Shown here piece by piece: positions 14,576 to 59,371 of a stretch of 60,712 bases of DNA. The position numbers and the translations under genes are program-made. How positions within the stretch are numbered: the first letter of the stretch is position 1; each line of letters starts with the position of its first letter. The notes beneath the pieces are model-generated. The model was not told the origin of the DNA. It was given only the letters and a program-made list of their open reading frames with translations, and did no database searches. This DNA comes from Candidatus Nomurabacteria bacterium (GTDB lineage: Bacteria; Patescibacteriota; Minisyncoccia; Phycocordibacterales; SBAW01). The stretch covers positions 289,900-350,611 of the forward strand of contig CALREW010000001.1 in NCBI GenBank assembly GCA_943356415.1, given 5' to 3'.

Positions 14576-14590
14576 ATAAGTCTCTAGTAA

Positions 14591-26674: not shown

Positions 26675-26754
26675 ATGCATCAGTATATCAAACCCGTGAG
26701 AGAGCTTTTTAATTCTGAGAGGCACTTCACACGAAGTCTCTCCTGAGGTAAACG

Positions 26755-28060: not shown

Positions 28061-28070
28061 GGCGTACCTA

Positions 28071-28325
28071 TTATCGCCCACGCATGATTTCAAGCTGTAT
28101 TTCATCACGCTGCGCTGGAGTAAGTTTTGGCGGTGCTTTGGTTATATTCAAATAGAGATACGCAGTAAGTCCTAGCGCAATAAGTATTGCAAGAACCATC
28201 ACCCACTGAACCGTTGCCTGAGTCTTTCCGAGACCCAACTTCATAAAATAACTCGTCACCGCACCTACTTGCTGCGGGCGTTGTGTCGCCTTTATTGACC
28301 GACCCTCTTCAAATTCAACTCCCAT
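28071..28325 (-). CDS. Small single-TM hypothetical protein
   Basis: 84 aa with one hydrophobic helix, co-oriented with neighbours. Confidence 0.65.
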   Translation of the reverse strand: MGVEFEEGRSIKATQRPQQVGAVTSYFMKLGLGKTQATVQWVMVLAILIALGLTAYLYLNITKAPPKLTPAQRDEIQLEIMRGR

Positions 28326-40290: not shown

Positions 40291-41793
40291 CTATTTGGAA
40301 GGGTCAATGCACATAGCTTTCAAATCAGATTCAACCCGGCTACAAATGGCCGCGTGTTTGTCCGCAGAATAAAATGCCTTTTCAGTTGCAAACGCAGCAC
40401 GCATACAAGCTACATGCTCATCATGCGTGAGAGACGACGTGGAACAAAACTCGAATGCTTTTTTGTATTCCTCCCCCGGTACCCCACCCTCATACATACC
40501 TCCAGGGATTCCACTGAGACACGGCACAACAAGGTCACGGCGAGCACTGTGACAGGCAGCAACCGCTGACACAAAGGCGTCTGGAGATGCCGATACTAAT
40601 TGTGCACCAACCACTCCAGCAAGGCTCTGCATAGCCATCGCTGCGTGGGGCATGCCATCAATACGCTCAATAGTCTGTATCGCTTTCTGTAAATCTCGAC
40701 CACTCTGTCGGAATACCGGTATATTCATCTCGTAGTAACACGGGATGCGTATTCGGTCCTCCGACCAACGCTCGCAAATACCGTACAGATCTGCCGTATC
40801 CAGTCGCAGTCCATAGGTATTGCTTATATACATGAGTGCCAGGGAGTTGAATGCCCCCGAAGCACATCTGAAGAAATGCGGTTCAGTTGGGTCAACACGC
40901 TCGCATAGCGCAAGTCCAGGTTCGATAAGTTTCTTTGGATCCTCCCAATCTCGAGGATCGGCTCCATCGACTGCACCGTGCCCAATGCCGTGGAAACACG
41001 CACCTTCGGCATTTTGTGTCTCATTACCGAGTATCTCTTGTGCGTGGGCACAGAAATCACGAGCCTTCCCCACATCTCCCGTTGACTGAAGCATGGCTTC
41101 CATAAATCCGTGATAGAAACCGAATCCGCAATACGACGTCTTCCCGGTAAGCTCCAAAGTGCCATCCTTCTCGTAGATGCGATACGCCTCTTCTCCAAGC
41201 GTGTGACTTACCGAATGGCACGAGTCCTTAAATCCTGGAACTTTCTCATACAGACGCGCCATTTCATTTAACGCAGCTTCAAGCCCCCTTTCTTTAAGAA
41301 CGTCTTTTACATCAGCTTCAAAACAACTGGCAGACTCTCTGTTAGCACTCGTGCATGCAGTTTTTACAACTGCACCTCGATAATCGAGAACGATAATCTC
41401 ACCTGTTTTATCTGATGCAAGATGATCGTGATATTGCCACACGCCGGGATTAGTAAATGTAAACTCCCAAGAACCTCCAGGCGCTATCGGCGCTCTGGGA
41501 TCAAACGCTGGATAAATAGTGTGGTTTGGATGCGAATCGGATGCTGGCCAAAACTCATGCGTCGTCGCGTTGTCGAAGTGAACCGTATCTCCTTGTCTGA
41601 CAACAAGTCGTGCCGGAGAAAAGCCCTCGTCAGTGCGCGTGATAGTTCTCTCTTCAGAAAGCTCGAACCGCTCGTCTGCAACGAAAAGTGAACGAGCCGC
41701 ACCGGAGGTAGCAACAAAAGACAGGAAGAAGGTACATGCAATAATGACCGATGCGATCGTGAGGGGCTTTAGTTTTGAAAATAAATTTTTCAT
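40291..41793 (-). CDS. Cupredoxin-like domain + Cys/His-motif domain protein (paralogue 3)
   Basis: Co-linear with 37549..39060; WPASDSHPNH, YHDH; SCHSVSH.LG, CGFGFYHG, CFHGIGHG. Confidence 0.8.
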   Translation of the reverse strand: MKNLFSKLKPLTIASVIIACTFFLSFVATSGAARSLFVADERFELSEERTITRTDEGFSPARLVVRQGDTVHFDNATTHEFWPASDSHPNHTIYPAFDPRAPIAPGGSWEFTFTNPGVWQYHDHLASDKTGEIIVLDYRGAVVKTACTSANRESASCFEADVKDVLKERGLEAALNEMARLYEKVPGFKDSCHSVSHTLGEEAYRIYEKDGTLELTGKTSYCGFGFYHGFMEAMLQSTGDVGKARDFCAHAQEILGNETQNAEGACFHGIGHGAVDGADPRDWEDPKKLIEPGLALCERVDPTEPHFFRCASGAFNSLALMYISNTYGLRLDTADLYGICERWSEDRIRIPCYYEMNIPVFRQSGRDLQKAIQTIERIDGMPHAAMAMQSLAGVVGAQLVSASPDAFVSAVAACHSARRDLVVPCLSGIPGGMYEGGVPGEEYKKAFEFCSTSSLTHDEHVACMRAAFATEKAFYSADKHAAICSRVESDLKAMCIDPSK

Positions 41794-42869
41794 AACGCAG
41801 GAGGGCGCGCGCCCTTAGGCGAAATGACCACTGCGGCGTGTATATAGAATGCACAATAGTCCTTATCCGCCTGAGGGAGTCCTTCGCATATTGCCATCGC
41901 CTTTGTACGGATGGTGCTCTCGGCAAACGCGCTACTTGCAGCGGCTGCGCGGCATAGCGTTTCTTCGTATTGGCGCGATGCAGCATCCTGACAGAGCGCA
42001 ATAGTCTTCTGCATGTCGTATGCGACCAACATCGGTGCCACGTAGCCAATACCTTCAAAACAAGGTTCTCTCAGCGCTGAGGGTGCGCTCCGACACCACC
42101 TACCCATTTGCGTAAAAATCACCGAGAACGTGACGCCGGGATAGTGCGTCGGTTGCGCCCACCACTGAGGCTGCCAAAATAAACAGACACGCGAATCTTC
42201 CTTAGAGAGCTCGAGACAAGGGAAAAAAGGATCATCTCCAAGCGGTCGGAGTCCTTCGTCACCTGGACCTCGCATCGTGTGCAAGTTGTATTCCATGATG
42301 GCCCCATTGATACAGTCTCCAAGTGGATCGTGGCTAAGTTCTTTGCACGTTGTAAGCGCCTTCTTTAGTCCTTCGACGTTGTAGCCTAGGTACAACTGTA
42401 TCCCGTGGCCAATACCATGGTTGCATCCCACGACATTAACGGCATCGAATGTCTCAAAACATTTTTGACCAAGCGCGGCGATCCCTGAAAGTCCTTGCGC
42501 TTGTATCACATATCCAAAAAGAGAGTGGAAACAGCCATATTGAAACGACGAGTCGCAGACTGCCAACCCATCGATACCCACACGCTCCGAGAGTGCTTCA
42601 CCGAAGAGATGTCCGGCTGCGTGTTGTTGGGGCAGCGTTAAGTTTGCGTAGGCTTGAAGAAATTCTGCGTAGGCTTCAGTGCCACCGAGCCGCTCTATTT
42701 CCCCCATCCAAAATTGATGGCCTCTCGACACTCCCTCTGGCGTTGTTATGTCAGGTGCCACAAAGTGAACGTTGGGAGAACCAATGTAGGGAATCAAAAA
42801 GAATCCAGCTGCGAGCGCTGCAAGTATAAGCGCAGCTACTATCTGTCTTTTCACTTCGCGCCGCGACAT
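41790..42869 (-). CDS. Cys/His-motif exported protein (paralogue 4)
   Basis: TM; QHAAGHLFG, CFHS, CNHGIGHG, CINGAIM. Confidence 0.78.
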   Translation of the reverse strand: MSRREVKRQIVAALILAALAAGFFLIPYIGSPNVHFVAPDITTPEGVSRGHQFWMGEIERLGGTEAYAEFLQAYANLTLPQQHAAGHLFGEALSERVGIDGLAVCDSSFQYGCFHSLFGYVIQAQGLSGIAALGQKCFETFDAVNVVGCNHGIGHGIQLYLGYNVEGLKKALTTCKELSHDPLGDCINGAIMEYNLHTMRGPGDEGLRPLGDDPFFPCLELSKEDSRVCLFWQPQWWAQPTHYPGVTFSVIFTQMGRWCRSAPSALREPCFEGIGYVAPMLVAYDMQKTIALCQDAASRQYEETLCRAAAASSAFAESTIRTKAMAICEGLPQADKDYCAFYIHAAVVISPKGARPPAL

Positions 42870-44101
42870 ATGGTTTGTGCGTCCTCAGGCAAGAGTTTGC
42901 AGAGTGGTTCGCGCTCCTCGCTTTTCGGCGCATATCGAGCCATAAGATGAGCGAGGTCATCGACGCACGCGTCGCCGTATTCTTTATTTTTGTTTGCGAG
43001 TACGTGGCAGTACCTAACCGACACCTGGGGCTCATTCTCTCCACCCCAATAGATGGAATGGAGCACGCTGAGAAGACAAAGCGTGGTGTCATGTTCGTTC
43101 CCTGAAAGGGCACACCACTGCCCCATCCGCTCAAATTCTTCATCGGTGATGGTCACAACGGTTCGCCTATCACTTTGGCGTGCGTAATTGAGTATTTCTT
43201 TTCCAAACGACGCAACACACGTATTTCGATCGGGGTCGTTGGGCGCAAGCACACGGCAGTACGAAAATGCTTTCGGATATACCGCTGGATTTGGACTATT
43301 CATGTCACCACCAGCAACTTCGATAAGGTGCGGAGTTATGTAGCTGTAGCAATAGGTTTTAACTTCAGCAGGCATAAATGCGGCGTCACACGGATAGAGC
43401 GGGTCTGCAGCATACAAATAATGTGGCCGCATCGATGCCCAAATACCAGGATTGTGACCCCCGCCAGAAATGGTCTCCATAACCGCCCCTCCAACACATT
43501 GTCCAAATTCCTGTCGATCATATTCGGCCGTCGCCGTTTTCTTGCACAGAGCGATGGTTTTCTCGAGATTGTAATCGGTGAACGCTAATATGCCGTGACC
43601 AAGCCCATGGAAACACATGGTGTACGCGCCGAGCCCTCCAGGCGCTTTCTTGCATGCGGCCTGTATGTCGTTGGTTGCCGCTTCGCCGTAATCGAGCATG
43701 AGACCGACAACAACGGTGTGCGAACAGGCATTTCGAAATTCGCTCGTACAGTAGGAAATCGCGTCCTTGCCATATTCTTTGTATAGCTGGTCGCCGATAA
43801 CGTGTCCGAGCAAGTGAACATCAGTTTTTGGCGGCAAGTCCACACGTCTCAATATTTCGTAGGCATAGAGCGCCCCTTTTTTTTCTGCGATATCTTGAAA
43901 ATAATCTCTCAGCTCGTTGAAGTCGCGCTGGTGCGATGCGATATCTCGCAATTCCGGATACGCAGTGGCTTTCTTCGTATATGCCACATATCCGTAACTG
44001 AGAAATGCTGCAAGTACTACCAACGTCGCAATAGCCACCACGCGATTATTCGTCACTCGCGCGGTACACGTTAAAAGAAAGTTACTGTATTTCTTCAGCA
44101 T
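42851..44101 (-). CDS. Cys/His-motif exported protein (paralogue 5)
   Basis: Start at MLKK (44101); TM; VHLLGHVIG, CSH, CFHGLGHG, CVGGAVM. Confidence 0.78.
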   Translation of the reverse strand: MLKKYSNFLLTCTARVTNNRVVAIATLVVLAAFLSYGYVAYTKKATAYPELRDIASHQRDFNELRDYFQDIAEKKGALYAYEILRRVDLPPKTDVHLLGHVIGDQLYKEYGKDAISYCTSEFRNACSHTVVVGLMLDYGEAATNDIQAACKKAPGGLGAYTMCFHGLGHGILAFTDYNLEKTIALCKKTATAEYDRQEFGQCVGGAVMETISGGGHNPGIWASMRPHYLYAADPLYPCDAAFMPAEVKTYCYSYITPHLIEVAGGDMNSPNPAVYPKAFSYCRVLAPNDPDRNTCVASFGKEILNYARQSDRRTVVTITDEEFERMGQWCALSGNEHDTTLCLLSVLHSIYWGGENEPQVSVRYCHVLANKNKEYGDACVDDLAHLMARYAPKSEEREPLCKLLPEDAQTICRGAK

Positions 44102-44168
44102 AAAAGGCAGACGGGATTTAGTATGCCAGAGGCACAACGCCCCGCCTACGTATCGTATACTAAGATAC

Positions 44169-44573
44169 ATGCCAGCCGCGCTTGCGCTACTTGTCACGAT
44201 TGGGTTTGCTGCAGGTGCAGGGGCAGCGCTCTACGCATCACCCCTTATCGAGGAAGGAAGCAGCTACTCAACGTGGGTCCTCGGGTCACGTTCAAATCTC
44301 CTGTCCCTAGGCGGAAGTGTGGAAGCAATCGGGGATAATTTTTTTGTACTGAAAGAAGAAGGTGGCGATATGCGCATCCATATGGCCTATGACGCGCAAA
44401 CGCTCTCCCTTGCCTTATCTGAAAAAGAGGAATCCGGCGTCATAACCGGCACGCGACTCTTGGTTGTCCCGCCGCAAGAATACTTACAAACAGGAGCGCT
44501 TGTGCGAATCGTACTGCGCTCGACACCAGAGACGAGCGCACCGTACGCGGCACTTATTACCCTAACACCCTGA
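44169..44573 (+). CDS. Small exported beta-rich protein (DUF5666/OB-like, tentative)
   Basis: Signal/TM; G.V..IGDNFF.L...T...G..V.I pattern; TATACT 7 nt upstream. Confidence 0.65.
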   Translation: MPAALALLVTIGFAAGAGAALYASPLIEEGSSYSTWVLGSRSNLLSLGGSVEAIGDNFFVLKEEGGDMRIHMAYDAQTLSLALSEKEESGVITGTRLLVVPPQEYLQTGALVRIVLRSTPETSAPYAALITLTP

Positions 44574-45047: not shown

Positions 45048-46328
45048 TTATCGTGCGATATGCAGACGCTTTCGTTTGTTGAAATTCGGCATTCGCGTTT
45101 GCGCCTCAGAAAGTAGCTCAACGGTAAGCGGTGCAACGAGTCCTTTTTCGACAAGATCAGCGTAGGTATGTATGGAACTTACCTTGAGCGCAGCCGCGAG
45201 CGTAGAAGCGCTGTTGTGAATTGAAGCGTCGGTATACAGCGTGATACTAAGAGAAGGCAATGTTCCATTGTCCTGCCACAGCGCACTGAAATCGAAAACT
45301 GGGTGAGGTAACGAGTAAACCGCCTCTTCTAAAGCAGCAACGCTTATCCCTCCGAGCGGCACCTTGACCTTATCGAGCGTAGCCCGCCCGAGTATTTCCA
45401 TAAGTGGCTCTGTGCTTCCGCAGACACACGGTACAACCTGGTGGACAACCGCATAGTCACCAGTCCGGTAGCGAATAAGCGGAAATCCCATAGGCACAAG
45501 CGCAGTGAGTACCATCTCGCCTTCCACCCCTGCATCAATTTCAAGCAACGCTCCAGTCTCAGGATCAATAAGTTCGATGGCGTACGTTGAGAATGGGTGG
45601 ATATGGTTGGGAGCCTCCCTCAAGCGCTTCGGGCACGTATGCGCGGCCATACCTTGCGATTCAGTAGAGGCGTACATGGTGGCTATTTGCGCTCGCGGAA
45701 ACGCGTCCGCTATCTTATTGCGCTGCAGAGCCGTAAGACGTTCCCCCAGCAGAAGGATGAACCGTATGTTCTCCCGCAAGGACGAGGCTTCAAAGTGTGG
45801 CAATATGCTTACCAAAGGCGACGGGAATGAAAAGATGGAGTCAGTCTTAGCCTCTTCACCTAGGCGGACAGAAAGTTCTGGATCATGAAAATCACCGACG
45901 ACAACCGGCATGCCGTCTGTTGCTTGCAAATGCGCCTCGTGGATAACGCTCGCAGCGGAAAACATGAGCAACGAGTAAGGATCTTCTTTCTTAAAATACG
46001 GACCAAAATAGCGACCGGCGAGGTCCGAGTCCTCGTTAAATCCGACCGATTGCCGATAGCGCATAAGTTCGGGTTCCTCAAGGACCGGAAAACCTATCAC
46101 GCGTCTTCCTGACGACCCAGACGTTGCTCGAACAAAACGCATCATTTCTCGCGGGACAAACACACGATCGAAGAATGGCGTGGCGTCAATCTCCTCTCGC
46201 GTGAGAAGTGGTATGGAAGGAAGTGGTCTTTCAATGATCCTCGCATAATCCGTGCCGTACTTGCGTCGGTAAAAATCCGAATACGGATTATTGATCGCAA
46301 AGGAAAGTATCTGCGAAAGCTTTCTCAT
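45048..46328 (-). CDS. PaaK/coenzyme F390 synthetase-like adenylate-forming (ANL) enzyme, copy A
   Basis: FYRRKY, TSGSSG P-loop, YASTE, GEMVLT, LIRYRTGD, GR hinge. Confidence 0.88.
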   Translation of the reverse strand: MRKLSQILSFAINNPYSDFYRRKYGTDYARIIERPLPSIPLLTREEIDATPFFDRVFVPREMMRFVRATSGSSGRRVIGFPVLEEPELMRYRQSVGFNEDSDLAGRYFGPYFKKEDPYSLLMFSAASVIHEAHLQATDGMPVVVGDFHDPELSVRLGEEAKTDSIFSFPSPLVSILPHFEASSLRENIRFILLLGERLTALQRNKIADAFPRAQIATMYASTESQGMAAHTCPKRLREAPNHIHPFSTYAIELIDPETGALLEIDAGVEGEMVLTALVPMGFPLIRYRTGDYAVVHQVVPCVCGSTEPLMEILGRATLDKVKVPLGGISVAALEEAVYSLPHPVFDFSALWQDNGTLPSLSITLYTDASIHNSASTLAAALKVSSIHTYADLVEKGLVAPLTVELLSEAQTRMPNFNKRKRLHIAR

Positions 46329-46777
46329 AGCGCTTCATCGTAGTACGTCTCCCCCGACGGTGCGACAAATGAAGGGCGCGCGCCTTTTGGATGAACGACA
46401 AGCCACCCGCGTACACGCGACTCCAATCCCATGCGCACAACATCGCGCGCAAAATCCTGCAGCGCTTCTTCTGTACCAACCACCGCTTCGATCGGCACTT
46501 CTTCCATAAGGCCCGTAAGAGCAGCGGCATGTGTGGTTAGTGCCAGACCGGTCACAATAGAACGAGTGCGGGCCTCGAGATATGCCGTTCGATGCAATTG
46601 CGTTATAAACGGCAAGAGTAGGCCGAGCGCTCGTGGACGCACCTCATCGAGCATGCGTCCGAGAACTTTCCATGAAGCATCCACGGGTCGTAGGTCAATA
46701 CGAACAGATCCATCGGAGTGACGCACTGGCGTCGGACGCAGCATGGGTGCTGCTGCAGCAGATCTTACATCCATCAA
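46325..46777 (-). CDS. 150-aa hypothetical protein, copy A
   Basis: Homologous to 58696..59148 (W.VLG..L.E, LG..LPF, AY.EA, ALTGLM..V.I.AV); 4-bp overlap with the ligase gene. Confidence 0.8.
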   Translation of the reverse strand: MMDVRSAAAAPMLRPTPVRHSDGSVRIDLRPVDASWKVLGRMLDEVRPRALGLLLPFITQLHRTAYLEARTRSIVTGLALTTHAAALTGLMEEVPIEAVVGTEEALQDFARDVVRMGLESRVRGWLVVHPKGARPSFVAPSGETYYDEAL

Positions 46778-46793
46778 TCTCTCTATCTATGTG

Positions 46794-46982
46794 CTAATAG
46801 ATTCCTCCGCACCAGATCTGATATACCCTATTAAATTTTTCTGCGTGCACTTCTTCTCCACTCGTCATTACTCCAAGCTCTGGATCGGTACAGTTAAGAA
46901 GCTGTTCTTGTTTTGTGGGAAAAGAACCCAATCCAACAATCGAAAAAAGGAGAGCAACTGCCGTGAGTACTTTCTTTTGCAT
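46794..46982 (-). CDS. Small exported peptide, copy A (62 aa, ends RVYQIWCGGIY)
   Basis: Hydrophobic N-terminus, LGSF, L.CT.PE and C-terminal CGGIY are conserved with 59174..59371; TATACT 9 nt upstream. Confidence 0.8.
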   Translation of the reverse strand: MQKKVLTAVALLFSIVGLGSFPTKQEQLLNCTDPELGVMTSGEEVHAEKFNRVYQIWCGGIY

Positions 46983-47067
46983 GTGTATTTCTAGTATACA
47001 GAAAGTGCTCACTCCTATCTACTTACCGATTCTTTCCGCCAGGACAGAGCATCGGTATACTTCGCTC

Positions 47068-48669
47068 ATGGACAACGCATGGCCTTTCTGGCTTCGCACC
47101 GCTCTGATTCTTGCCGCAGCGGCGCTCTTCTTCTATCTACTCCACGGACACACGCCTCTGCAGCAACCTGGATTGGAAGGGTATATCGGCATACACGAGC
47201 ACAATCCGATGCTCGCATTCCCTGGAACTTCACTTCCTGACATGCAACTCGCCGTGGATGAACTCTCGATTAGCGCTAAAGCGGCGGTCTTGCCTTTTCG
47301 GGACGATCCGAGCGGGATTCTCCATACGGAGACCTACCCGGTCGCTTTCCTGATGGCGATACCAAATACCGAGAGAGCTCGGCGGACGATGCTTTCAACG
47401 CGTACAGAGCAGAGCGCAGAGACATACCACAAAACACTGCTCTCTCTCATCGAAGCTTACGAGGAGGCACTTTCGCAGGCGATCACCTTGCTTTCAACCG
47501 GGACGCCCACCGTGCTTTCTTCTTTTATGGGCACGAGTGATTCAGCACATATCGCGAAAATCTTGCGCGAGGGTCAAAACACGCTCACGCAAATGAAGAT
47601 GGAGGAGATGCGCAGGCACTCGTGCGCAACAGGAGGAGGTACGGCCTGCAGTGATCGACCATACTGGGACAATGTGCCGATGTACGCGACTAAATCTACG
47701 CTGACGCCTGCAACGCCATTACCAGACGACATTGTTTTGAAACGTGATGCCCTAAGAAAGTACGCATCGCACTCTGGCGTATCAATGGAGGACGTACACA
47801 CCTTCGAACTATCCGATTCCTCCTGTTATCCTTCCTACGCTCCAATCTACTACGACGTATCCACAAATCGATCGACTCTCTCCTCCGCTACCATGGCCCA
47901 TATCACCTTGTTGAGCGATGTTTTCTTCTACGATCTCGAGAAGATCCGTGGGGCATTCAGCCGCGCACTGTATCAAGCTGGTAGCCCGTATTCCTATCAG
48001 CCATTTAATGCATATATCTGCCAGGATTCAGGAGAAGAGTTCGGCGACTTGCTCGCCATGCGTTATGCCCGCAATGAGCTGGCGGCGCATCCTATAACAG
48101 CGGCAAGCAATGACACAAAGTTATTGGACGAGCTCCTCGCCGCACAAAAAGAATTCCTGGCTGAAAATCCGACACGCGAAGTGTCCTACCGACATCTTAT
48201 GTCAGAGGCGGAACGCCTCTTGCGTATCAAAGACGCCAAGCTCGTCGAGCTTCTCGGATCACAAGAGCGTGTTACGGCCTTACGAGAGCTTGCACTTAGT
48301 GCTCGAACACGCAGCGCAGGACTCGAGCTTGTTGTAGGTTATTTTGACGATATGCAGGCAGGCTCATATATGACCGCCCGCTTTGACGCGTATCGGACTA
48401 ACGTTTTTGCGCTGCTCCGATCAGGCATATCCCCACTCTTACTTGTAGCCAACGAGACCGGACCATTCAAAAAGAGTACGTCTCTCTTATCCAACGTTTC
48501 CAAAGAAGAGCTTGCACCAACTGATTATTCCCTGCTCTCATACAATCGCGATTTACGCGAACGCTATACACTCGAAAAATTGCTTTCGTTCCATCTCATC
48601 GCTCGCGAACAAGTCATAGAACCAATCGTCAAAGATCTTACCGCCCGTCGGGCGGCACTTTCTCACTGA
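47068..48669 (+). CDS. Large membrane-anchored hypothetical protein (paralogue X1)
   Basis: Start at MDNA (47068) after TATACT; shares AFPG, ELS.S.CYPS, FYDL and YSYQPFNAY.C.D.GE with 49932..51668. Confidence 0.8.
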   Translation: MDNAWPFWLRTALILAAAALFFYLLHGHTPLQQPGLEGYIGIHEHNPMLAFPGTSLPDMQLAVDELSISAKAAVLPFRDDPSGILHTETYPVAFLMAIPNTERARRTMLSTRTEQSAETYHKTLLSLIEAYEEALSQAITLLSTGTPTVLSSFMGTSDSAHIAKILREGQNTLTQMKMEEMRRHSCATGGGTACSDRPYWDNVPMYATKSTLTPATPLPDDIVLKRDALRKYASHSGVSMEDVHTFELSDSSCYPSYAPIYYDVSTNRSTLSSATMAHITLLSDVFFYDLEKIRGAFSRALYQAGSPYSYQPFNAYICQDSGEEFGDLLAMRYARNELAAHPITAASNDTKLLDELLAAQKEFLAENPTREVSYRHLMSEAERLLRIKDAKLVELLGSQERVTALRELALSARTRSAGLELVVGYFDDMQAGSYMTARFDAYRTNVFALLRSGISPLLLVANETGPFKKSTSLLSNVSKEELAPTDYSLLSYNRDLRERYTLEKLLSFHLIAREQVIEPIVKDLTARRAALSH

Positions 48670-49874
48670 CTATTTGGAGATCGCACCGAAGCACATTTTA
48701 GAGCGTACGGTGGCGGAAGCTTGGCACACAATTCAAGGCGTAGATGTTCTTCCTGCATAAAGGAGTATGGAATCATAATTGAAAGCGCCTGATAGCACTG
48801 GTCACCAACGCCCGCTGTTGCGGCACGTCCGCAGTAGGTAAACGATTGATCATAGTCGTGTCCGGCCATGAACGCATAGGAACCGGCAGATGCGTAGCAC
48901 CAGCCTCGTTTCTCCTGCGGGTAGGTAGCGCAATAGGCATCCGCAGCGTCCATATTGAAATAGGTGTCGCGAGCAAAGAGACGAAGTTGGGTGCCTCGAC
49001 ACAAATCTCGGCGCGAAACATCAAGCACGCCACAATCAAGCGGATGCGGCGGGCCCTTGCTTAATTCTTTGTAGAACAAGGATGCGCTTCGCGCGACACA
49101 CGCGGCCTCTACTGCTCCAGAAAATGTTTTGCAAAATGCTCCAACCGTTTCCTTTGTCTGTCCATTGTTTCCAATAAGCGCATAATCTTCCGGTTCATGC
49201 GGTTCAAAAAGTTGCATAAATATTCCGTCGTAACAGGAAAGTTCTTGACCATCCCGCGTAACCCCACCAGCGTCTTTAAAGCGAACTGCTGCACATAGAC
49301 CGATCGACCGCTCAAGCGCTCCGTCGGTGATGAACATGAATAAATGACCCAGTCCGTGGGAACACATAAATAAAACGGCAGGAGAAGACGGCGCCTGCGG
49401 GTCAAAATCACAAAATCCTTGTACCTCCTCTAAGAACGCGGGAACCTTCTCAAGTGCTAAAAAGTCGGTCTTGAAGCGTTCTTGAAATGCTCCATGCAAT
49501 CCTCCGCTTAAGCACACCCCTTGCGGCGTGCGCCGGGCAACCTCTTTCCACTTAGACGGATCCTTTGCAACTTCGGTTGCCCCTAAACGATGTCCAATGT
49601 TGTGACAATATTCGCCGCTGGTATCAAGGCGCTGTATCTCTTCAGCTATCGCAAAAGTGTCTTCAAATGAGACTCCGCGGTCAAGCAACTTTGGAACTTC
49701 ATTCTCGTAACAGAGCGACCGGTTTTGCGCCTGTGCACATTGATCAACCACCGCATGCGCATACCTCTCTAAGGACACCGGAGCGGCACTGTAGACACGC
49801 AACGCCACCATGACTAGTGCCACAATCAAAAAACCTCCCAAAAATGACATCGTTCGTCGTGGATTCACCTTCAT
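48663..49874 (-). CDS. Cys/His-motif exported protein (paralogue 6)
   Basis: Start at MKVN (49874) after TATACT; YCHNIGHRLG, CLSGGLHG, CSHGLGH, CYDGIFM. Confidence 0.8.
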   Translation of the reverse strand: MKVNPRRTMSFLGGFLIVALVMVALRVYSAAPVSLERYAHAVVDQCAQAQNRSLCYENEVPKLLDRGVSFEDTFAIAEEIQRLDTSGEYCHNIGHRLGATEVAKDPSKWKEVARRTPQGVCLSGGLHGAFQERFKTDFLALEKVPAFLEEVQGFCDFDPQAPSSPAVLFMCSHGLGHLFMFITDGALERSIGLCAAVRFKDAGGVTRDGQELSCYDGIFMQLFEPHEPEDYALIGNNGQTKETVGAFCKTFSGAVEAACVARSASLFYKELSKGPPHPLDCGVLDVSRRDLCRGTQLRLFARDTYFNMDAADAYCATYPQEKRGWCYASAGSYAFMAGHDYDQSFTYCGRAATAGVGDQCYQALSIMIPYSFMQEEHLRLELCAKLPPPYALKCASVRSPNSQ

Positions 49875-49931
49875 GTCGACAGTATATCCCTCAGACACAG
49901 CAGCGGGCTCTTTAGTATACTCAGGGACGAA

Positions 49932-51668
49932 ATGAAGGCGACGTACGCCATGCTGGGGTTTCTTGCGATTGTCAGCTTTGCCGTTGCAACGTACGGAATA
50001 GTGAGCCAAGCGCGTTTTTTTCCTTCTGCAATCACATCCAATCCAAAGGATCGTCTTGCTCAGTATGTCGAAGCACATCGACTTGACCCAATATTTGCAT
50101 TCCCGGGCATTGATGTCGAAGCAATGCGACAAGTGGTAAAAGAATTCACGATAAGTGCCCGCGTCGCCATGCCGCCGTACAATAATCAGGAGGCGATACG
50201 GGAATCGCTTTTCCCTTTTCAATTTCTTGCAGCCGTAGCAGACGCAGAGGAAGCCCGCGTCAAGCTTTTTGCGGAGCCTAGTCGTGAACATGCTGATGTC
50301 TATCACCGCTCACTTATGCATCTCATGGAAAACTACAAGGAGGATAGCTCCCACGCGCGCGATATCTTAGAACACGCAAGCACGACAACTCGCATATTCT
50401 TTTTCATCGGAGAGACGAGCCCCGCGCGCATCAAAACCGTACTCGCCGAGGCGGAGGTGCACGCGAATGCCCTTATGGAAAAAGAGGAGCGGCGTTTTGA
50501 TTGTCTTTTGGGTTTAGCCGCACAATGCGAGTCAATCGATTCTCTTATCCTTCAATTTGGCGATATGAGCACCGGGACACGTTTGGATACTTTGCCGACT
50601 GAGAAACTCACTAAAGTCGCCGAGGAAAATTTCAGCACCCTTGCCGCACTCAACTCACAACTTGCGTCAAGCACCCTCGTCGAACTCTCTCATTCTGCCT
50701 GCTATCCGAGCGCGCCTACCTACTACGCAGTAACAACAAAGATATCGAGGCTCTCCGGTCTTCCCTCTGCTGATATCACGTACCTCAACGATCTGTACTT
50801 CTACGATCTCAAGCGTACAAGCAAGCAACCGTACTTTGACGAGCTACAAAAGGCAGGGGCGCAGTACTCATACCAACCATTTAACGCGTATCTTTGTCTT
50901 GATGCTGGGGAAGATATGGGACGTTTAATGACCATTATCCATACGCGCATATCTCTCGCTCACACTCCTTTGAAGGCCCGAGGCGGTTACATTCCACCGT
51001 TGATTAAAGAGGTACTAGAAGCGCAAGAACAATTCCTCGCAGGGACTACCGTGCGCTCAGATGCCTACGATAGGTTGATACGCAACGCATCCCTTGCCGT
51101 ACGAACGTATGGAATGACCGGTGTGTCTTCATATTTTTCTGATGCCACCGCAGGGGAACAACTCGTCGACTTGGTTATACTCTCGAGAACTCAAAGTGCT
51201 GATTTCGAGAAAATAGTCGCCTATTTTGACGACCTGCAAGTAGGAACATTCCTCCCCTATCATTTCAATCCCTCTCCTCTGTATGCGTTCCTCATGACGC
51301 GCGGTGGCCTCTCTCCGCTGCTTGCACTTGAAAACCGAACCGGCGCTCTACCCCAGGCGCTCTCACTTTTGGAGACCAATGTGCCACACAAGAACCCGTA
51401 TGCCTATATGCACATAAGCCTACGCTCTTATGAAAACGACCTTCACGCGACACGTGCGCGTGGCACGCTGATACAGACCCTCCTTGACGAACGTCGCGCG
51501 CACGACAAAGCATTCGGGTTGCTCATAAGCGATCTACAAATTGCACGACAATCGTATAAAAAAATGCTTGAAACATGCGGCGGGTCCGTGGCACTACATA
51601 CTGAAGAATCACCTATCCGACGAATCTGGAATATGACATGCACTCCAGCTCCCACACCTGGCTCTTAG
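49932..51668 (+). CDS. Large membrane-anchored hypothetical protein (paralogue X2)
   Basis: Co-linear homology with 47068..48669; N-terminal TM. Confidence 0.8.
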   Translation: MKATYAMLGFLAIVSFAVATYGIVSQARFFPSAITSNPKDRLAQYVEAHRLDPIFAFPGIDVEAMRQVVKEFTISARVAMPPYNNQEAIRESLFPFQFLAAVADAEEARVKLFAEPSREHADVYHRSLMHLMENYKEDSSHARDILEHASTTTRIFFFIGETSPARIKTVLAEAEVHANALMEKEERRFDCLLGLAAQCESIDSLILQFGDMSTGTRLDTLPTEKLTKVAEENFSTLAALNSQLASSTLVELSHSACYPSAPTYYAVTTKISRLSGLPSADITYLNDLYFYDLKRTSKQPYFDELQKAGAQYSYQPFNAYLCLDAGEDMGRLMTIIHTRISLAHTPLKARGGYIPPLIKEVLEAQEQFLAGTTVRSDAYDRLIRNASLAVRTYGMTGVSSYFSDATAGEQLVDLVILSRTQSADFEKIVAYFDDLQVGTFLPYHFNPSPLYAFLMTRGGLSPLLALENRTGALPQALSLLETNVPHKNPYAYMHISLRSYENDLHATRARGTLIQTLLDERRAHDKAFGLLISDLQIARQSYKKMLETCGGSVALHTEESPIRRIWNMTCTPAPTPGS

Positions 51669-52876
51669 TTCAGAATCTCTTTTGTGCCCGCACAATACTG
51701 GTATTCTTCCGAATCTGACTTTGTAAACATAAGACACTTCTCTGCGCGTTTGCCTGGGTACCACCGCGCTAAATCTTCTCCAGAAAGAGCGAGACATACT
51801 GCTTTATCTTTCTCCGGAGCGGCATTGCAAAGGTCGGCATATCCCTGCACGTCTCCTCCCGTTGCAAATCCTTTGAATATGGTCGCTTGCTCAAAGCACG
51901 ACTCGCGGTCTTCAGCTCTCTCAATGCCGGAGCACACCGATGCAACGTACGTCATATCATCTGAGAGCAGCACCGCCTGCGCTCCAAATGTTCCATAACA
52001 ATCTGTCCTGAACGCAGGCGGTATACGGTTGCAAAAGAGACTCGTCTTCGCATAGTCAGCTCGCGATTGCTGCAGCACGAATGTGGAGCGCGACGCGTAG
52101 CATTGATGCTGGTACTTTGCCGCAAGTTCCGTACACGGATATTCAGGGTTGTCTTTGTCGACCGTTGAGTTTCCCTTACCTCCGTTAAATGAAAACGTGT
52201 CCTCCATAAAAACCCCCGTATAGCAAATACCCTGGTCGTGCGTATCGGCAATGTAATCGCAAAAAGGGAGCGCCTTAGCAATGTCATTATTGGTTTGAAG
52301 CATGGCGGCGTGACCAAGCCCATGGATGCACGCATCGTACGTGACACGATTCCCCGCTTCCTCTTCCTTGCACGCATTTTGAATCACCTCCTTAGTCACC
52401 GCTCCCCCATGCGCTTGAAGATATCCTTCGAGCGTCCCGTGGAAGCACCCCTCACCGCAGGCAATGTCGGTCGAGCACGCAAGGAAACTCTGAGAGATAC
52501 TGCCTGTCTTTTTAAACTCACGCTGTCCGAGTACATGCCCAAACGCATGACACCAACCGCGTATTTGCGGTTCATCTTGTATCTCAGCGAGGCCTTTAAG
52601 TGCAGCGGGCAATTCAAAATGGGCAGTCACCCGATTTCCTAATTCCTGATAACAATCACTGCGCCATACATTGTCACGGTATTCCTCGGTGCCGTAACAC
52701 GTAAGAAATTCAGTACGCAGATATGACGCAACACTTTCAAATGGAAACGGGTTCCGTAAACCATATTTGCCAAACAGTTGGCTGTAGAGAAAAAATGGAC
52801 CAAGGATACAAAGAAAAATTCCCGCGAGAATAAGATTCCTTTTCTGTGTTCGCACAAACAAACGCAGCGTGTGCAT
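51665..52876 (-). CDS. Cys/His-motif exported protein (paralogue 7)
   Basis: TM; WCHAFGHVLG, CGEGCFHG, CIHGLGH, CYTGVFM. Confidence 0.8.
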   Translation of the reverse strand: MHTLRLFVRTQKRNLILAGIFLCILGPFFLYSQLFGKYGLRNPFPFESVASYLRTEFLTCYGTEEYRDNVWRSDCYQELGNRVTAHFELPAALKGLAEIQDEPQIRGWCHAFGHVLGQREFKKTGSISQSFLACSTDIACGEGCFHGTLEGYLQAHGGAVTKEVIQNACKEEEAGNRVTYDACIHGLGHAAMLQTNNDIAKALPFCDYIADTHDQGICYTGVFMEDTFSFNGGKGNSTVDKDNPEYPCTELAAKYQHQCYASRSTFVLQQSRADYAKTSLFCNRIPPAFRTDCYGTFGAQAVLLSDDMTYVASVCSGIERAEDRESCFEQATIFKGFATGGDVQGYADLCNAAPEKDKAVCLALSGEDLARWYPGKRAEKCLMFTKSDSEEYQYCAGTKEILN

Positions 52877-52885: not shown

Positions 52886-53641
52886 CTATCTACCGAACAA
52901 ACCATTGATAAGACTGACAAACGGCAGTCCGAAAGAACCGGTGCCCACATCTGCGACGGGCGCGTAGAGGTACGACCCCCTATCAACAAGCGCGTCCTTG
53001 CCTTTAGCAACCTCAACAACAATTGGATGTGCCAAAATGTAAGGGTCATGGCGTGTGCCAGTTACTTGCCACGAAACCGTGCCGCCTGCTACTCCACCTG
53101 CAACGCGGAAGCGATTATCTTTCACGCCATCGCGAATATAGAGATTCGGCATGGGCTGACCTATCGGTTTTAATTGATAGCGAAAATCTTTATTGAGCGC
53201 TTCAAAGTATGCCGGCAGCTGCACTACTGCTTCACCAGCGTTATCGAGCTTCGCCACACCATCGTACATATTTTTTACATCAGGACTCTCCACGAACGAG
53301 TGATACAGCAGTTTGTTTGCAGGGTCGAGTGGATGGTCGATGACGAACGTTCCGCTACCTTTAGAAATATTTCCAGTGACGTTAAAGTTGAGCGCCGCGG
53401 TCGCATTTTGTGTAAACGTAAGTTGATACGACGGCTGATAATAGCTCTGGTAATACCCCTGGTAGTAGCCTTGGTAGTACCCCTGGTAATACCCCTGGTA
53501 ATAGCCTTCGTAATACCCTTGGCCATAACAAGTGCCACCTCCTCCACCGGCAAATGCCGCCACCGGAAGCAAGAGCCCGCCTGAAAGCATCGCAGCCAAA
53601 AGGCGTAGCACGTGTCGCTTAGTGTTTTTCATAGCCTTCAT
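52886..53641 (-). CDS. Exported FVIDHPLDP-domain protein with N-terminal Gly5 and (YYQG)n tract
   Basis: Signal peptide ending AFA|GGGGG; seven YYx[G/S/P] units; FVIDHPLDPANKLLYHSFVESPDVKN.YDG; start may be 53632. Confidence 0.8.
   Translation of the reverse strand: MKAMKNTKRHVLRLLAAMLSGGLLLPVAAFAGGGGGTCYGQGYYEGYYQGYYQGYYQGYYQGYYQSYYQPSYQLTFTQNATAALNFNVTGNISKGSGTFVIDHPLDPANKLLYHSFVESPDVKNMYDGVAKLDNAGEAVVQLPAYFEALNKDFRYQLKPIGQPMPNLYIRDGVKDNRFRVAGGVAGGTVSWQVTGTRHDPYILAHPIVVEVAKGKDALVDRGSYLYAPVADVGTGSFGLPFVSLINGLFGR
53252..53353. repeat. 102-bp exact direct repeat, copy 1 (copy 2 at 53934..54035; 51-bp core also at 54549..54599)
   Basis: Base-by-base identity checked by eye; encodes GTFVIDHPLDPANKLLYHSFVESPDVKNMYDGVA. 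Confidence 0.9.
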
Positions 53642-54179
53642 AGAGGTACGCTCCTTTTTTCACGAGTGCATCTTCACCTTTATCGACTTCCACACGAGTA
53701 TCAATTTGCAGAATAGCAGGGTCGTGACGATTGCCCGTTATCTGCCACGATACACGGTTTCCTGGTGTACCGCCGGCAATAACAAAACGATTTTTCGTAA
53801 CATCTGCACCTTCCTTCAGATACAAGTTCGGATCTGCGCTATCGAGCGGAAAAAATTGATACCTGAAATCTTTGTTAAGTGCATCGAAGTATGGTGGCAG
53901 CGAAATAATTACTTCGCCTTTCGCATCAACAAGCGCCACACCATCGTACATATTTTTTACATCAGGACTCTCCACGAACGAGTGATACAGCAGTTTGTTT
54001 GCAGGGTCGAGTGGATGGTCGATGACGAACGTTCCTGTGGTTTTCGTCAACGTCCCAGATATGGAAAGGCTCCCACTAAAGCGTGTTCCTACGGTGATGG
54101 TGACCGCAGTCACGGCCACCGGCGTAATAAGAAGCGCGAAAGTGGCAAGCCCGGTGATAATCTGTTGTTTATTTACCAT
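53619..54179 (-). CDS. Exported FVIDHPLDP-domain protein (paralogue 2)
   Basis: Signal peptide; same domain (SWQITG.RHD). Confidence 0.82.
   Translation of the reverse strand: MVNKQQIITGLATFALLITPVAVTAVTITVGTRFSGSLSISGTLTKTTGTFVIDHPLDPANKLLYHSFVESPDVKNMYDGVALVDAKGEVIISLPPYFDALNKDFRYQFFPLDSADPNLYLKEGADVTKNRFVIAGGTPGNRVSWQITGNRHDPAILQIDTRVEVDKGEDALVKKGAYLYEGYEKH
53934..54035. repeat. 102-bp exact direct repeat, copy 2
   Basis: Identical to 53252..53353. Confidence 0.9.
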
Positions 54180-54744
54180 AGGCTTCAGGCGTCAGATATT
54201 CTCCCTTCTTTACCGGCGTTGAATCGTCCTTGGTCACTTCAGTCACGATAGGGTTATCCATAATGAACTTGTCATGGCGGATTCCCGTTATCTGCCAGGA
54301 GACCGAACCCCCTGCCACTCCACCGGTAATTGTAAATCGTATGGGTCCAAACAACCCGAACCAGCGACGATGCACTTCTTTTTTAAGATGGAGATTCGGC
54401 ATGGGCTGCCCGATAGGCGTCGCGAGGTAACGGAAATCTTTGTTAAGTGCTAAAAAATATGATGGGAGCGGTATCTCTGCCTCGCCGTTTTCATCAAGCT
54501 CAATAATCCCATCGTAAATATTTTTAACGTCAGGGCTTTCTACAAAAAAGTGATACAGCAGTTTGTTTGCAGGGTCGAGTGGATGGTCGATGACGAACGA
54601 TCCGGCAACCTTTGAGAGAGCCCCGACGACGTTGGTGCCCTGTATAGCGACCGTTGAGTTAAAGGTAACCGCGTCTACCACCGTTGCCGACACCCCCCAC
54701 AAGAGGAGTGCCCCGAACGCCGCCACAAACCCTCGCTTCAACAT
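54169..54744 (-). CDS. Exported FVIDHPLDP-domain protein (paralogue 3)
   Basis: Signal peptide; same domain; TG-extended TATCCT 6 nt upstream. Confidence 0.82.
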   Translation of the reverse strand: MLKRGFVAAFGALLLWGVSATVVDAVTFNSTVAIQGTNVVGALSKVAGSFVIDHPLDPANKLLYHFFVESPDVKNIYDGIIELDENGEAEIPLPSYFLALNKDFRYLATPIGQPMPNLHLKKEVHRRWFGLFGPIRFTITGGVAGGSVSWQITGIRHDKFIMDNPIVTEVTKDDSTPVKKGEYLTPEAYGK

Positions 54745-57406: not shown

Positions 57407-58699
57407 CTATAGCAAACGTTTCTTTTTGCTCCATCCAATCCACGCTTCAACCGGGCGACACTCAATCACAATGGGACGCACCGACCCTTCTGCGACAATA
57501 TCAGCGTACGAAAGCGCCGGGGCTATTTTGATCCCCTCACTGAGGGTTTTTGCAATCGCTTCATCAAGTTCCCCATCTCCTTCATCCATATAGAGCGTGA
57601 TTGAAAGCCCTGGCACTTCTCCCGCGGCGTCCCAAGAGGCAGCAAACTCTTTTATCTCAATAGAAAGGCCCGCAACCGCCTGATCAACTGCAGCGATGGT
57701 AAGCACCCCGCGCGGCACACGTATGCGATCGAGCGTGAGTCTGCCCATACATTCAAACAAGAGCGGGCTACCCTCGCACGAACATGTCTCGGAGCGAATG
57801 CGGGCAAAATCGCCGGTACGATAACGAATAAGTGGAAATGCCTGGGGCTCATGTGTGGTGATGACGAGCTCTCCTTCCGTACCGGCCGTAAGCGGCAGAC
57901 TCTCCCCTGTCTCTGGACTAATAAGCTCAATGAATAAGGAGCCTTCAGCAACATGGAACGCTTTCGGGTCACTGCTCATTTTCTCTGGGCACGTATAGCC
58001 GACAAAGCCTTGCGATTCAGTGAGTCCGTACTGAGATGCAATCTTAGCGTTCGGAAAAAACTCTTGTAATTTCGTAAACTGCAATGTGGTAGCTAACTCC
58101 CCCACAGCGACCACAAGACGCACCGCTCTGCATCCATCCAGTGCTTTCAAAAAAGGAGCAAAAGAGACGAGACCGCTAGGACTTCCCACTACGGCATCAA
58201 CTTGTGCTTCTGCGGCAAGTCGTGCGGTAAGCTTCGGTTGCGTAAAATCACCAGATATAAACATTCGCCCCTCCATGCCTCGCACACGCACTTCATGTAC
58301 AAATGACCCTGCAGAGAAAAGCAACTGCGACTTAATGTTCATTGACGAGAAGTATGGCTCGAAATAGCGAGACAATTGCCCCGACACGGGCACGTGGCCA
58401 ATGCTTTTCAAATATTCTTGGTACAGTCCCTCCTCAAGCATCGGAAAGCCAATGACATTTTTCCCCGTTGAACCGGATGTCGAGCGTATAAAGCGCACCA
58501 TAGTTTGTGGCACAAATACGCGTGAGCGTAACGGCACTGCTTCAATCTCAGGCCTTGTGAGAAACGGTACCGCAGCGACAGACTGTGAGAGAAGCGCTTC
58601 GAACTCTGCGCCGTACTTGCGGCGATAGAAATCGGAGTGGGGATTATGGAGCGCAAACGTAAGCGCCCGATGCATGAGCGTCTCTATCTTTTCTTTCAT
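57407..58699 (-). CDS. PaaK/coenzyme F390 synthetase-like adenylate-forming (ANL) enzyme, copy B
   Basis: DFYRRKYG, TSGSTG, YGLTE, GELVIT, LIRYRTGD; co-linear with 45048..46328. Confidence 0.88.
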   Translation of the reverse strand: MKEKIETLMHRALTFALHNPHSDFYRRKYGAEFEALLSQSVAAVPFLTRPEIEAVPLRSRVFVPQTMVRFIRSTSGSTGKNVIGFPMLEEGLYQEYLKSIGHVPVSGQLSRYFEPYFSSMNIKSQLLFSAGSFVHEVRVRGMEGRMFISGDFTQPKLTARLAAEAQVDAVVGSPSGLVSFAPFLKALDGCRAVRLVVAVGELATTLQFTKLQEFFPNAKIASQYGLTESQGFVGYTCPEKMSSDPKAFHVAEGSLFIELISPETGESLPLTAGTEGELVITTHEPQAFPLIRYRTGDFARIRSETCSCEGSPLLFECMGRLTLDRIRVPRGVLTIAAVDQAVAGLSIEIKEFAASWDAAGEVPGLSITLYMDEGDGELDEAIAKTLSEGIKIAPALSYADIVAEGSVRPIVIECRPVEAWIGWSKKKRLL

Positions 58700-59148
58700 G
58701 GCAATAGGTCGTGCACAACGATGGCGCCGGGGACGTCAAAAGAACTTTGCTCTTCCTTTGTAGAGAGAACGACCCAAAGTCGTATACGCTCAAGCATGCG
58801 AACCTCAGTTAAATCTGCCAGGAGATTGCGGGCGCCCACATCGTTCGTAATCACCGCATCTATTTCAACGTTGCGCATGAGACCCGTGAGTGCTGAGACA
58901 TTGGTCGGCATGGCCACCGCAGTGATGACGCCGCGTTTATTTGCTTCCTGGTACGCAGCAAAGTGTTGCTGCCATGCAAACGGCAACACAATGCCGAGAC
59001 CTTGTATGTTTGCTTCTTCAAGCGCCTTCCCAAGTACTGGCCACGTGAGGCTCACTTCCGCTGTCTGCGCAACAGGAACAGCAAACGTTTCCCCGTAGGC
59101 GCGCGGAACGATGCGCCATAGTTTTGGGTCATGCTCCGGCACGCGCAT
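58696..59148 (-). CDS. 150-aa hypothetical protein, copy B
   Basis: ATG 59148 gives exactly the length of copy A and avoids overlap with the peptide gene; shared motifs. Confidence 0.78.
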   Translation of the reverse strand: MRVPEHDPKLWRIVPRAYGETFAVPVAQTAEVSLTWPVLGKALEEANIQGLGIVLPFAWQQHFAAYQEANKRGVITAVAMPTNVSALTGLMRNVEIDAVITNDVGARNLLADLTEVRMLERIRLWVVLSTKEEQSSFDVPGAIVVHDLLP

Positions 59149-59173
59149 AGCAAACTGCTTCAAAATAATCGGT

Positions 59174-59371
59174 CTAGAAAAGCCCCCCGCATCCGACGTA
59201 ATACACCCGTTCATCTGAGTCCTTTTGAGCCTGCGTATCGCCATTCTGTTCAGGAGACGTACACTGGAGCGCCGAAACATCTCCAGACGCGTGCCAAAGG
59301 CCAAACGAGCCAAGAACCGCAACGGCCGCAAGTGACATAAGTGAGAAAGCTCCTTTTAAAAACCGCTTCAT
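59174..59371 (-). CDS. Small exported peptide, copy B (65 aa, ends RVYYVGCGGLF)
   Basis: TG-C-TATACT 7 nt before ATG 59371; LGSF, L.CT.PE and CGGLF motifs. Confidence 0.8.
   Translation of the reverse strand: MKRFLKGAFSLMSLAAVAVLGSFGLWHASGDVSALQCTSPEQNGDTQAQKDSDERVYYVGCGGLF

Follow-up and report, generated by a model that had tools for sequence, protein, structure and literature searches.

We analysed a 60,712-nucleotide stretch of a Candidatus Nomurabacteria genome (contig CALREW010000001.1, positions 289,900 to 350,611; hereafter, the window) and found two paralogous operons on its minus strand, each encoding a small precursor peptide, a partner protein of ~150 residues and a PaaK-like adenylate-forming ligase of the ANL type. 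From sequence comparisons, these gene sets probably represent an undescribed peptide-modification system that is conserved across the candidate phyla radiation (CPR, or Patescibacteria). The peptides share an invariant cysteine close to a hydrophobic C-terminus, and the ligase may close a thiolactone ring between the two. Copy A occupies positions 45048-46982 and copy B positions 57407-59371, with the following genes:

46794..46982, minus strand: precursor peptide A, 62 aa, start ATG at 46982
46325..46777, minus strand: partner A, 149-150 aa, likely ATG at 46774, a remnant of an ANL N-domain
45048..46328, minus strand: ligase A, 426 aa, PaaK-fold ANL adenylate-forming enzyme
59174..59371, minus strand: precursor peptide B, 65 aa
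58696..59148, minus strand: partner B, 150 aa counted from M61 of a listed 211-aa open reading frame (ORF)
57407..58699, minus strand: ligase B, 430 aa

A first-pass annotation of the window had described this trio in copy A and its recurrence in copy B, and all of its features were recovered at these positions and on this strand. The ligases of the two copies are 42% identical (E 2e-117), the partners 36% (E 8e-26) and the peptides 33% (E 3e-6), and we read the copies as old paralogues. The partner stop and the ligase start overlap by 4 nt in both copies. The order peptide, partner, ligase was retained at every close ligase homologue that could be placed on a contig, and three genomes each combine a copy of A type, whose tail is WCGG[VI][YF], with one of B type, whose tail is GCGGL[FY]. 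The window is a chromosomal stretch of the Adlerbacteria type and also contains housekeeping genes (ThrRS, GyrB, PheST, S2, EF-Ts, RF, aldolase, transketolase and GAPDH). The locus sequence was detected in lake-water DNA metagenome runs only; RNA evidence was looked for and none was found.

Peptide A reads MQKK...LGSF...LLNCTDPE...NRVYQIWCGGIY-stop, and consists of a positively charged n-region (MQKK), a 19-residue uncharged h-region, Cys31, a variable acidic linker and the conserved tail FNRVYQIW-C-G-G-I-Y-stop. Peptide B, which ends in ...ERVYYVGCGGLF-stop, has the n-region MKRFLK, a 20-residue h-region, a mid-peptide Cys37 and the tail DERVYYVG-C-G-G-L-F-stop. The peptides carry no annotation beyond that of hypothetical proteins. 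A comparison of the peptide A gene with that of a close relative (locus L168) gave a pN/pS of 0.21 at a pS of 0.55, with the changes restricted to the middle of the peptide and the final 14 residues identical. Conservation at all close homologues, the enrichment of the tail motif described below and the pN/pS value led us to reject the reading of the short ORFs as chance, and bear out the earlier claim that they are genuine genes. We also rejected a lipoprotein reading of the mid-peptide Cys, which is not preceded by a lipobox and lies 10-30 residues past the h-region.

The start of peptide A was assigned to the ATG at 46982 because an upstream GTG is lost in L168. Longer GTG/ATG starts (47012 for copy A and 59416 for copy B) were rejected, since the GTG is not conserved and overlaps a promoter-like site:

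46993..47021, minus strand: TAGATA-17 nt-TATACT, promoter-like by match to consensus only, ending 11 nt upstream of the peptide A ATG

This site is kept in L168, and its proximity to the ATG would imply a very short leader. A second TATACT is found 8 nt upstream of the ATG of peptide B.

We scanned GTDB genomes and JGI metagenomes using alignments of the ligases. After clustering at 50% identity, the ligase profile matched 344 representatives at E <= 1e-30; relaxing the threshold to E <= 1e-3 gave 14134, a figure that covers the general PaaK family. Ligases of just 24-32% identity were found in Kaiserbacteria, Minisyncoccia, Paceibacterota and other Parcubacteria, and these distant enzymes were adjoined by an ORF of 59-88 aa that bears a signal sequence and ends in C-[GNA]-[GNSTV]-Φ-Φ-stop (Φ, hydrophobic). 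The tails include ...FFLSCGGIF, ...FFLTCGGIY, ...YFVSCGGIY, ...RFIGCNNMF and ...LFAGCAVIF, as well as ...HFSGCNTVI, ...LYVGCNGFF, ...LFIGCNGFF and ...HFSGCNSI[IL]. Relative to the distant ligase, the small ORF is found upstream, downstream or on the opposite strand. Adjacency of peptide and ligase is conserved in ~20 independent loci, which is the arrangement of precursor beside modifying enzyme expected of a RiPP (a peptide made on the ribosome and modified after translation). A search for Cys-tailed small ORFs near homologous ligases, which the first-pass annotation had proposed, thus recovered them at all close homologues and at many distant ones, and the persistence of the pairing across distant CPR lineages, despite changes in order and strand, ties the short ORF functionally to the ligase.

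A neighbour-joining tree of the ligases resolved three clades. One combines CGG tails with the partner, and often with a protein of ~540 aa; another combines CN[ST][IV][IL] tails with an Lnt-like gene; and the third has CN[GN]xF or CAVIF tails and no partner. The correspondence of the clades with tail class and accessory gene indicates that the ligase co-diversifies with the tail. A remote family ligase (P0020) adjoins an ABC transporter. A possible ORF ending in CENMF in L031 and L108 was set aside as probably spurious: it lacks a signal peptide, and a larger ORF overlaps it from the opposite strand. Tandem arrays of 3-4 ligase paralogues, with long dead-ligase partners (~290 aa) in between, were seen in L015 and L017 (one contig, JABMNX010000033) and in L169:1904-6460, the latter with no Cys-tailed peptide within 4 kb.

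To quantify the association, a strict tail pattern, C[GNA][GNTSV][FIMVL][FYLIW]-stop, was scored on stop-to-stop segments of at least 25 aa. Within the window it was present in 2 of 1420 segments, and both were the peptides reported here at the ligases. Among the 3769 segments of 24 CPR ligase loci there were 18 occurrences, 17 of which were adjacent family members, and 56 more distant PaaK-like loci yielded 2 in 7045 segments, one itself a clear family member. By chance, the strict tail arises about once in 349 kb of other PaaK-like loci.

An alignment of the tails of 26 distinct peptides showed that the tail Cys is invariant (26/26) and, in 24 of them, exactly fifth from the C-terminus, with four residues after it. 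This spacing had first been remarked on in the two peptides of the window, together with their aromatic last residue; across the family, the invariant Cys four residues ahead of a free hydrophobic or aromatic terminus is the defining feature. Relative to the Cys, position -3 is F or Y in 22/26 peptides and position -1 is G, W, S or T; small residues follow at +1 (G, N or A) and +2 (G, S, N, T or V), and +3 (I, V, L, F or M) and +4 (F, Y, L or I) hold a hydrophobic or aromatic residue in every case. The tail can be summarised as [FY]-x-[GWST]-C-[GN]-[GS]-Φ-Φ-COOH. The two peptides that depart from the spacing carry an extra terminal Glu (CGGFLE and CGGFFE). A second Cys is present 5-31 residues upstream of the tail Cys in 23/26 peptides. 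In three peptides the tail Cys is the sole Cys, so that pairing in a disulfide cannot be its only role. Every peptide examined starts with a positive n-region and continues with an uncharged h-region of 16-23 residues (28 in one case).

The ligase matches the Pfam AMP-binding model weakly. Both ligases scored far under the cut-offs of the NCBIfam models for related enzymes: TIGR02155 (PaaK), whose cut-off is 646 bits, gave 36.9 and 46.1; NF041878 (PaaK; cut-off 700) gave 49 and 62; and the DVU_1553 family (cut-off 300) gave 77 and 102. The cut-offs of the F390 and FlxY models were likewise missed by far. A Foldseek search of the PDB with an AlphaFold2 (AF2) model of the ligase (pLDDT 78) retrieved ClxA (9s3l; E 1.3e-24; TM-score 0.66 by query and 0.70 by target) and the PaaK-family enzymes PaaK1 (2y27), PaaK2, BT_0428, NatL2 and AjiA1, with TM-scores in the range 0.66-0.70 for ClxA, PaaK1 and BT_0428. 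A profile search of PDB sequences returned the same set. The ligase is ~20% identical to known PaaK-type enzymes, and its N-terminal ~150 residues are divergent.

Ligase A contains the P-loop T69-S-G-S-S-G74, the hinge RYRTGD and a C-terminal Lys418. Residues T69, S70, G71, S72, G74, R286, R288, T289, G290, D291 and K418 were invariant in 14 close homologues, and among 21 CPR-wide sequences G71, R286 and Y287 were invariant, with R288, T289, G290 and D291 retained in at least 90%. Invariance of the P-loop, hinge and terminal Lys fits an active adenylating enzyme. As modelled, the ligase is a PaaK-type ANL enzyme at the level of the fold, with its adenylation motifs intact; the PaaK-like identity originally assigned to it was therefore borne out in fold and motifs, while the scores fall well outside PaaK orthologues. 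No paa genes were found around either copy, and the neighbours are unannotated secreted or membrane proteins.

The partner had been proposed to recognise the peptide. It has no Pfam or NCBIfam match, including to RRE/PqqD families, and only three database relatives were found by a word-indexed search. An all-against-all comparison of the ORFs of the loci linked it to proteins of 240-308 aa located upstream of the ligase in Kaiserbacteria-type loci, and alignment of the partner family with the ligase family by hhalign (probability 99.2%, E 2.7e-19) placed partner columns 14-268 on ligase residues 12-297. In the partner family S-F-D-P stands where the ligase has its P-loop TSGSSG, and the entire C-terminal domain is absent, together with the A10 Lys; the 150-aa partner of the window retains just the middle of the ligase N-domain. 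With the P-loop and the C-terminal domain lost, the partner is a catalytically dead remnant of a ligase paralogue. It is also missing from many loci, including the CN-type clades, which excludes it as a recognition device for the system in general. A role as a dedicated recognition element of a known type was accordingly not upheld, and a reading of the partner as an RRE or other known domain was likewise rejected. PaaK-type enzymes are dimers, as has been shown for NatL2 (PMC7204872), and by analogy a heteromer of ligase and partner is a reasonable suggestion. A 211-aa reading of partner B was rejected because it overlaps the peptide, and the start at M61, MRVPEHDPKLWRIVP, matches the homologues. 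In an NCBI metagenome-assembled genome the partner is frameshifted (L001/L009:2670-3004, giving products of 50-60 aa), and an intact form of 131 aa is present where the same sequence was assembled independently by Logan (L002:327-722); the frameshift is probably an assembly error.

Other genes accompany the ligases, of which the ~540-aa protein and an Lnt-like enzyme are commoner companions than the ~150-aa partner. Those in the window are:

47068..48669, plus strand: ~540-aa family protein, 533 aa, anchored in the membrane at its N-terminus and encoded divergently from peptide A
49932..51668, plus strand: second paralogue of the ~540-aa family, 578 aa
44169..45042, plus strand: two small proteins of 134 and 155 aa, each anchored at the N-terminus and encoded convergently with ligase A, possibly an accessory pair

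The ~540-aa family accompanies the CGG-type and some CN-type loci. Its gene directly follows or overlaps the peptide gene in Kaiserbacteria-type loci, and in L021 a remote member lies between peptide and ligase. Pfam and NCBIfam searches with this protein were empty, and an AF2 model (pLDDT 76, pTM 0.78; mostly helical) had no match in a Foldseek search of the PDB (best E 0.14), so that the family possibly represents a new fold. Homologues of the 134/155-aa pair, which has no Pfam or NCBIfam match, are found beside ligases in L012, L013 and L168, and probably in L004, L006 and L169. The pair counts among the lineage-specific neighbours of the system, as do Cys-rich anchored proteins of ~400 aa.

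In the CNS-type clade a gene with LNT_N and CN_hydrolase domains directly follows the ligase (L022:3870-5462, L024:4227-7213, L025:4193-5782, L029:4193-5836 and L031:4164-5645), scoring 124 bits against the TIGR00546 cut-off of 133. All five sequences keep an invariant Cys (CSE) and Lys; where E. coli Lnt has its first catalytic Glu, these proteins seem to have Gln.

These observations can be accommodated in the following scheme. The precursor would carry an N-terminal Sec-type signal or anchor along with the conserved Cys tail, and, before export, the cytoplasmic ligase would bind the free hydrophobic or aromatic C-terminus as if it were an aryl acid; with Phe, Tyr, Leu or Ile in last place, the C-terminus looks like an aryl- or alkyl-acetate. 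The ligase would then use ATP to adenylate the C-terminal carboxylate of the peptide, and the Cys thiol four residues upstream would take the acyl group from AMP in place of coenzyme A (CoA), giving a five-residue C-terminal thiolactone with no requirement for AgrB. In the lineage of the window the ligase would probably act as a heteromer with the dead N-domain fragment. The charged peptide would be exported, and outside the cell could have a signalling role or donate its activated acyl group to the anchored ~540-aa protein, whose place in another clade may be taken by the Lnt-like Cys enzyme. We rank this AgrB-independent thiolactone, the mechanism put forward in the first-pass annotation, first as the best-fitting one, although we hold it tentatively, as quite possible and short of probable. 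A free C-terminus at a fixed distance from the Cys, genetic and phylogenetic coupling, and a carboxylate-activating enzyme whose normal second substrate is a thiol make it the simplest chemistry, and the positive n-region and h-region suggest handling at the cytoplasmic face similar to that of AgrD, followed by export.

The proposed product invites comparison with the Agr system. Both have a small ribosomal precursor with an N-terminal membrane-targeting segment, and a Cys followed by four residues to a hydrophobic mature C-terminus; the ring size would be that of the staphylococcal autoinducing peptides (AIPs), whose rings, such as CDFIM, CSSLF and CNAYF, resemble the tails of this family. 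There are also differences. AgrD combines an amphipathic N-terminal leader and a core with Cys with a charged C-terminal recognition tail that is removed at cyclisation; the peptides described here have a hydrophobic N-terminal leader, but the ORF stops right after Cys+4 in 24/26 of them, leaving no AgrD-type tail. ATP, used by an ANL ligase, would supply the energy in place of peptide-bond cleavage, and the hosts are CPR bacteria and not Firmicutes. AgrB, AgrC and AgrA are all absent from the window: when its ~55 ORFs were scanned against Pfam, there was no match to AgrB, as the first-pass annotation had supposed, nor to AgrC/histidine kinases or response regulators, and the only HATPase_c domain was that of GyrB.

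Adenylation of a peptide carboxylate by ATP, followed by intramolecular capture, is known from RiPP pathways with ThiF-like enzymes (GrcB, MccB and EnfB, which forms a macrocyclic imide; PMC12250964, PMC11256085), and ATP-dependent thiolactone formation in a RiPP has been described for GrcB (PMC12250964). The enzyme described here has an ANL/PaaK fold and not an E1/ThiF fold, there is no RRE domain, and the precursor has a Sec-type signal. According to a review, the GrcB linkage is reversed with respect to AIPs, joining an internal Glu side chain to a C-terminal Cys, although one passage of the same review names the C-terminal carboxylate. In the peptides studied here the bond would run from the C-terminal carboxylate of the main chain to a Cys upstream of it.

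PaaK and the CoA-independent PaaK-type ligases NatL2, AjiA1 and ClxA share the two-domain fold and adenylation motifs of the ligase and are its best matches in sequence and structure. Known members of this type act on small aryl acids and not on peptides, and none is known to be partnered by a dead N-domain paralogue. In NatL2, a PaaK-type ligase, the acyl-AMP is captured by a hydroxyl of the substrate without CoA (PMC7204872), and in LuxE, a relative of PaaK, the attacking group is the Cys thiol of a flexible peptide segment at the C-terminus (PMC9157457). The two examples show that an active site of this type can accept nucleophiles besides CoA, a peptide thiol among them. LuxE differs in acylating its own tail with a fatty acid and in having no ANL C-terminal domain, which the ligase described here keeps along with its Lys; the Cys in the present system belongs to a distinct, secreted peptide. 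The peptide, the partner and the ~540-aa protein all fall outside the models of Pfam and NCBIfam, and searches of the full-text literature found no ANL/PaaK enzyme acting on a ribosomal or RiPP precursor, no CPR peptide signalling system and no prior description of this peptide-ligase system. Taken together, these comparisons suggest a RiPP-like precursor with a C-terminus-activating enzyme and an AIP-like tail, which falls outside the Agr, ThiF-type RiPP and PaaK families.

A number of observations weigh against closure of a thiolactone. The terminal Glu of CGGFLE and CGGFFE means that the ring size is altered or that trimming is needed. Variants with Ser or Thr in place of the tail Cys were sought among the family peptides and none was found, so that independent support for a nucleophilic role from Cys-to-Ser (lactone) variants is missing. 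A fixed distance from Cys to C-terminus is equally expected of a CaaX-like recognition box, and the conserved upstream Cys is left unexplained by a simple ring model. As the peptide is Sec-targeted and the ligase cytoplasmic, modification must come before export. There is no receptor kinase or regulator nearby to support a quorum-sensing role. Lastly, the first-pass annotation had regarded homologous ligases lacking such peptides as evidence against its proposal; a minority of this kind does exist, with no peptide within the 3-4 kb fetched at L014, L024, L026, L031 and its relatives, and L169, which weakens the case only slightly.

In one alternative the ligase would adenylate a small aryl or fatty acid and transfer the acyl group to the tail Cys, with the peptide taking the role of CoA, the tail acting as a recognition box and the product being an S-acylated, possibly lipidated, secreted or membrane peptide. 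Small aryl acids are the normal substrates of PaaK-type enzymes, LuxE hands its acyl-AMP to the Cys of a C-terminal motif, KGCxLS (PMC9157457), and the Lnt family, represented in one clade, handles lipid acyl groups on Cys-bearing proteins; an invariant Cys at a fixed spacing fits such acylation as well as it fits ring closure. We consider it unlikely, since no acid-supplying or tailoring gene is conserved in the neighbourhood, a thioester-bound acyl group would be labile on an exported product, and reaction at the terminal carboxylate explains the hydrophobic last residue and fixed stop more directly. Alternatively, the C-terminus could be adenylated and passed to CoA, an amine, a lipid head group or an envelope acceptor, with the Cys pair serving for structure (a disulfide formed after export) or for metal binding. 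ANL/PaaK-type amide or ester ligases such as ClxA and NatL2 provide precedent, the second Cys in 23/26 peptides would be accounted for, and the extracytoplasmic ~540-aa protein and Cys-rich neighbours suggest an envelope function. This is slightly less likely still in our view: the tail Cys is invariant and fixed in position even in the three peptides where it stands alone, the upstream Cys lies anywhere between 5 and 31 residues from it, genes for making an acceptor are not conserved, and a thiol in the same molecule, four residues distant, would be an efficient competitor for the acyl-AMP.

The least probable of the explanations considered is that the ligase is an ordinary aryl- or acyl-CoA ligase and the Cys-tailed proteins are independent envelope proteins that are merely syntenic with it. 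The PaaK-like fold and motifs, the family ligases with no detectable peptide nearby and the abundance of unannotated, lineage-specific secreted proteins in the region would all be compatible with such a coincidence. The association holds, however, at 24-32% ligase identity, in different CPR classes and with rearranged order and strand; the tail motif is essentially absent from control PaaK-like loci, ligase clades co-vary with tail class, and PaaK-type equivalog cut-offs are widely missed (37 bits against 646, for example). In addition, CPR genomes to our knowledge lack the aromatic catabolism pathways that would use PaaK.

An extension of the thiolactone mechanism, which we regard as decidedly unlikely, is that the ring is no end product but carries ATP-derived acyl-transfer energy across the membrane, the thioester being spent outside the cell, where ATP is absent. 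Use of the thioester after export is suggested by the upstream Cys, the extracytoplasmic ~540-aa and Lnt-like companions and the Sec-type leader. Speculatively, the ~540-aa protein or Lnt-like enzyme could ligate the peptide C-terminus to an envelope, lipid or host acceptor; equally speculatively, the upstream Cys could drive a closure of the native-chemical-ligation type, giving a ring of 19-36 residues.

The surroundings of the operons contain further unannotated genes. At least six paralogous Cys-rich anchored proteins of ~360-550 aa, with repeated C...HG.GH-like motifs, are encoded on the minus strand at 40291-44197, 48663-50306, 51665-52876 and 56288-57397; a single weak cupredoxin-like match was all that Pfam and NCBIfam gave for them, and they co-occur with the ligase system in 7 loci. 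Three tandem paralogues of 251, 186 and 191 aa at 52886-54744 (minus strand) have a common block, FVIDHPLDPANKLLYHSFVESPDVKN[MI]YDG, and the first also has a GYYEGYYQGYYQGYYQGYYQGYYQSYYQ repeat; they have no family match, and the triplet is also found in L009 and L011. Further away, 30 kb from the ligases, a 195-aa protein at 14015-14602 (minus strand) contains a PaaX central (Cas2-like) domain (E 1e-21). A 204-aa protein at 27494-28108 (minus strand) has a type IV pilin N-terminal methylation motif, and near it are a lytic transglycosylase (25304-26725) and a protein of the fatty-acid desaturase family (24232-25461). The G+C content of positions 4001-8000 is 0.60-0.61, compared with ~0.50-0.52 elsewhere in the window; this stretch, which holds unannotated ORFs at 4286-6952 and a sortase at 7155-7796, may have been acquired.

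If the ligase acts on the peptide C-terminus, it would be, as far as our searches found, the first ANL/PaaK-type enzyme known to modify a ribosomal peptide, and would be useful as a biocatalyst. The chemistry, if correct, would constitute a second, ATP-driven and AgrB-independent route to AIP-like thiolactones, and, should the thioester indeed be spent outside the cell, a new logic of extracellular protein ligation specific to host-dependent CPR bacteria. CPR/Patescibacteria are tiny, uncultured and host-attached, with very few annotated biosynthetic systems, and the chemistry of their cell-cell and cell-host contacts is almost unknown. A sizeable peptide-ligase family with conserved companions of unknown fold provides a defined entry point into the surface biology of these organisms.

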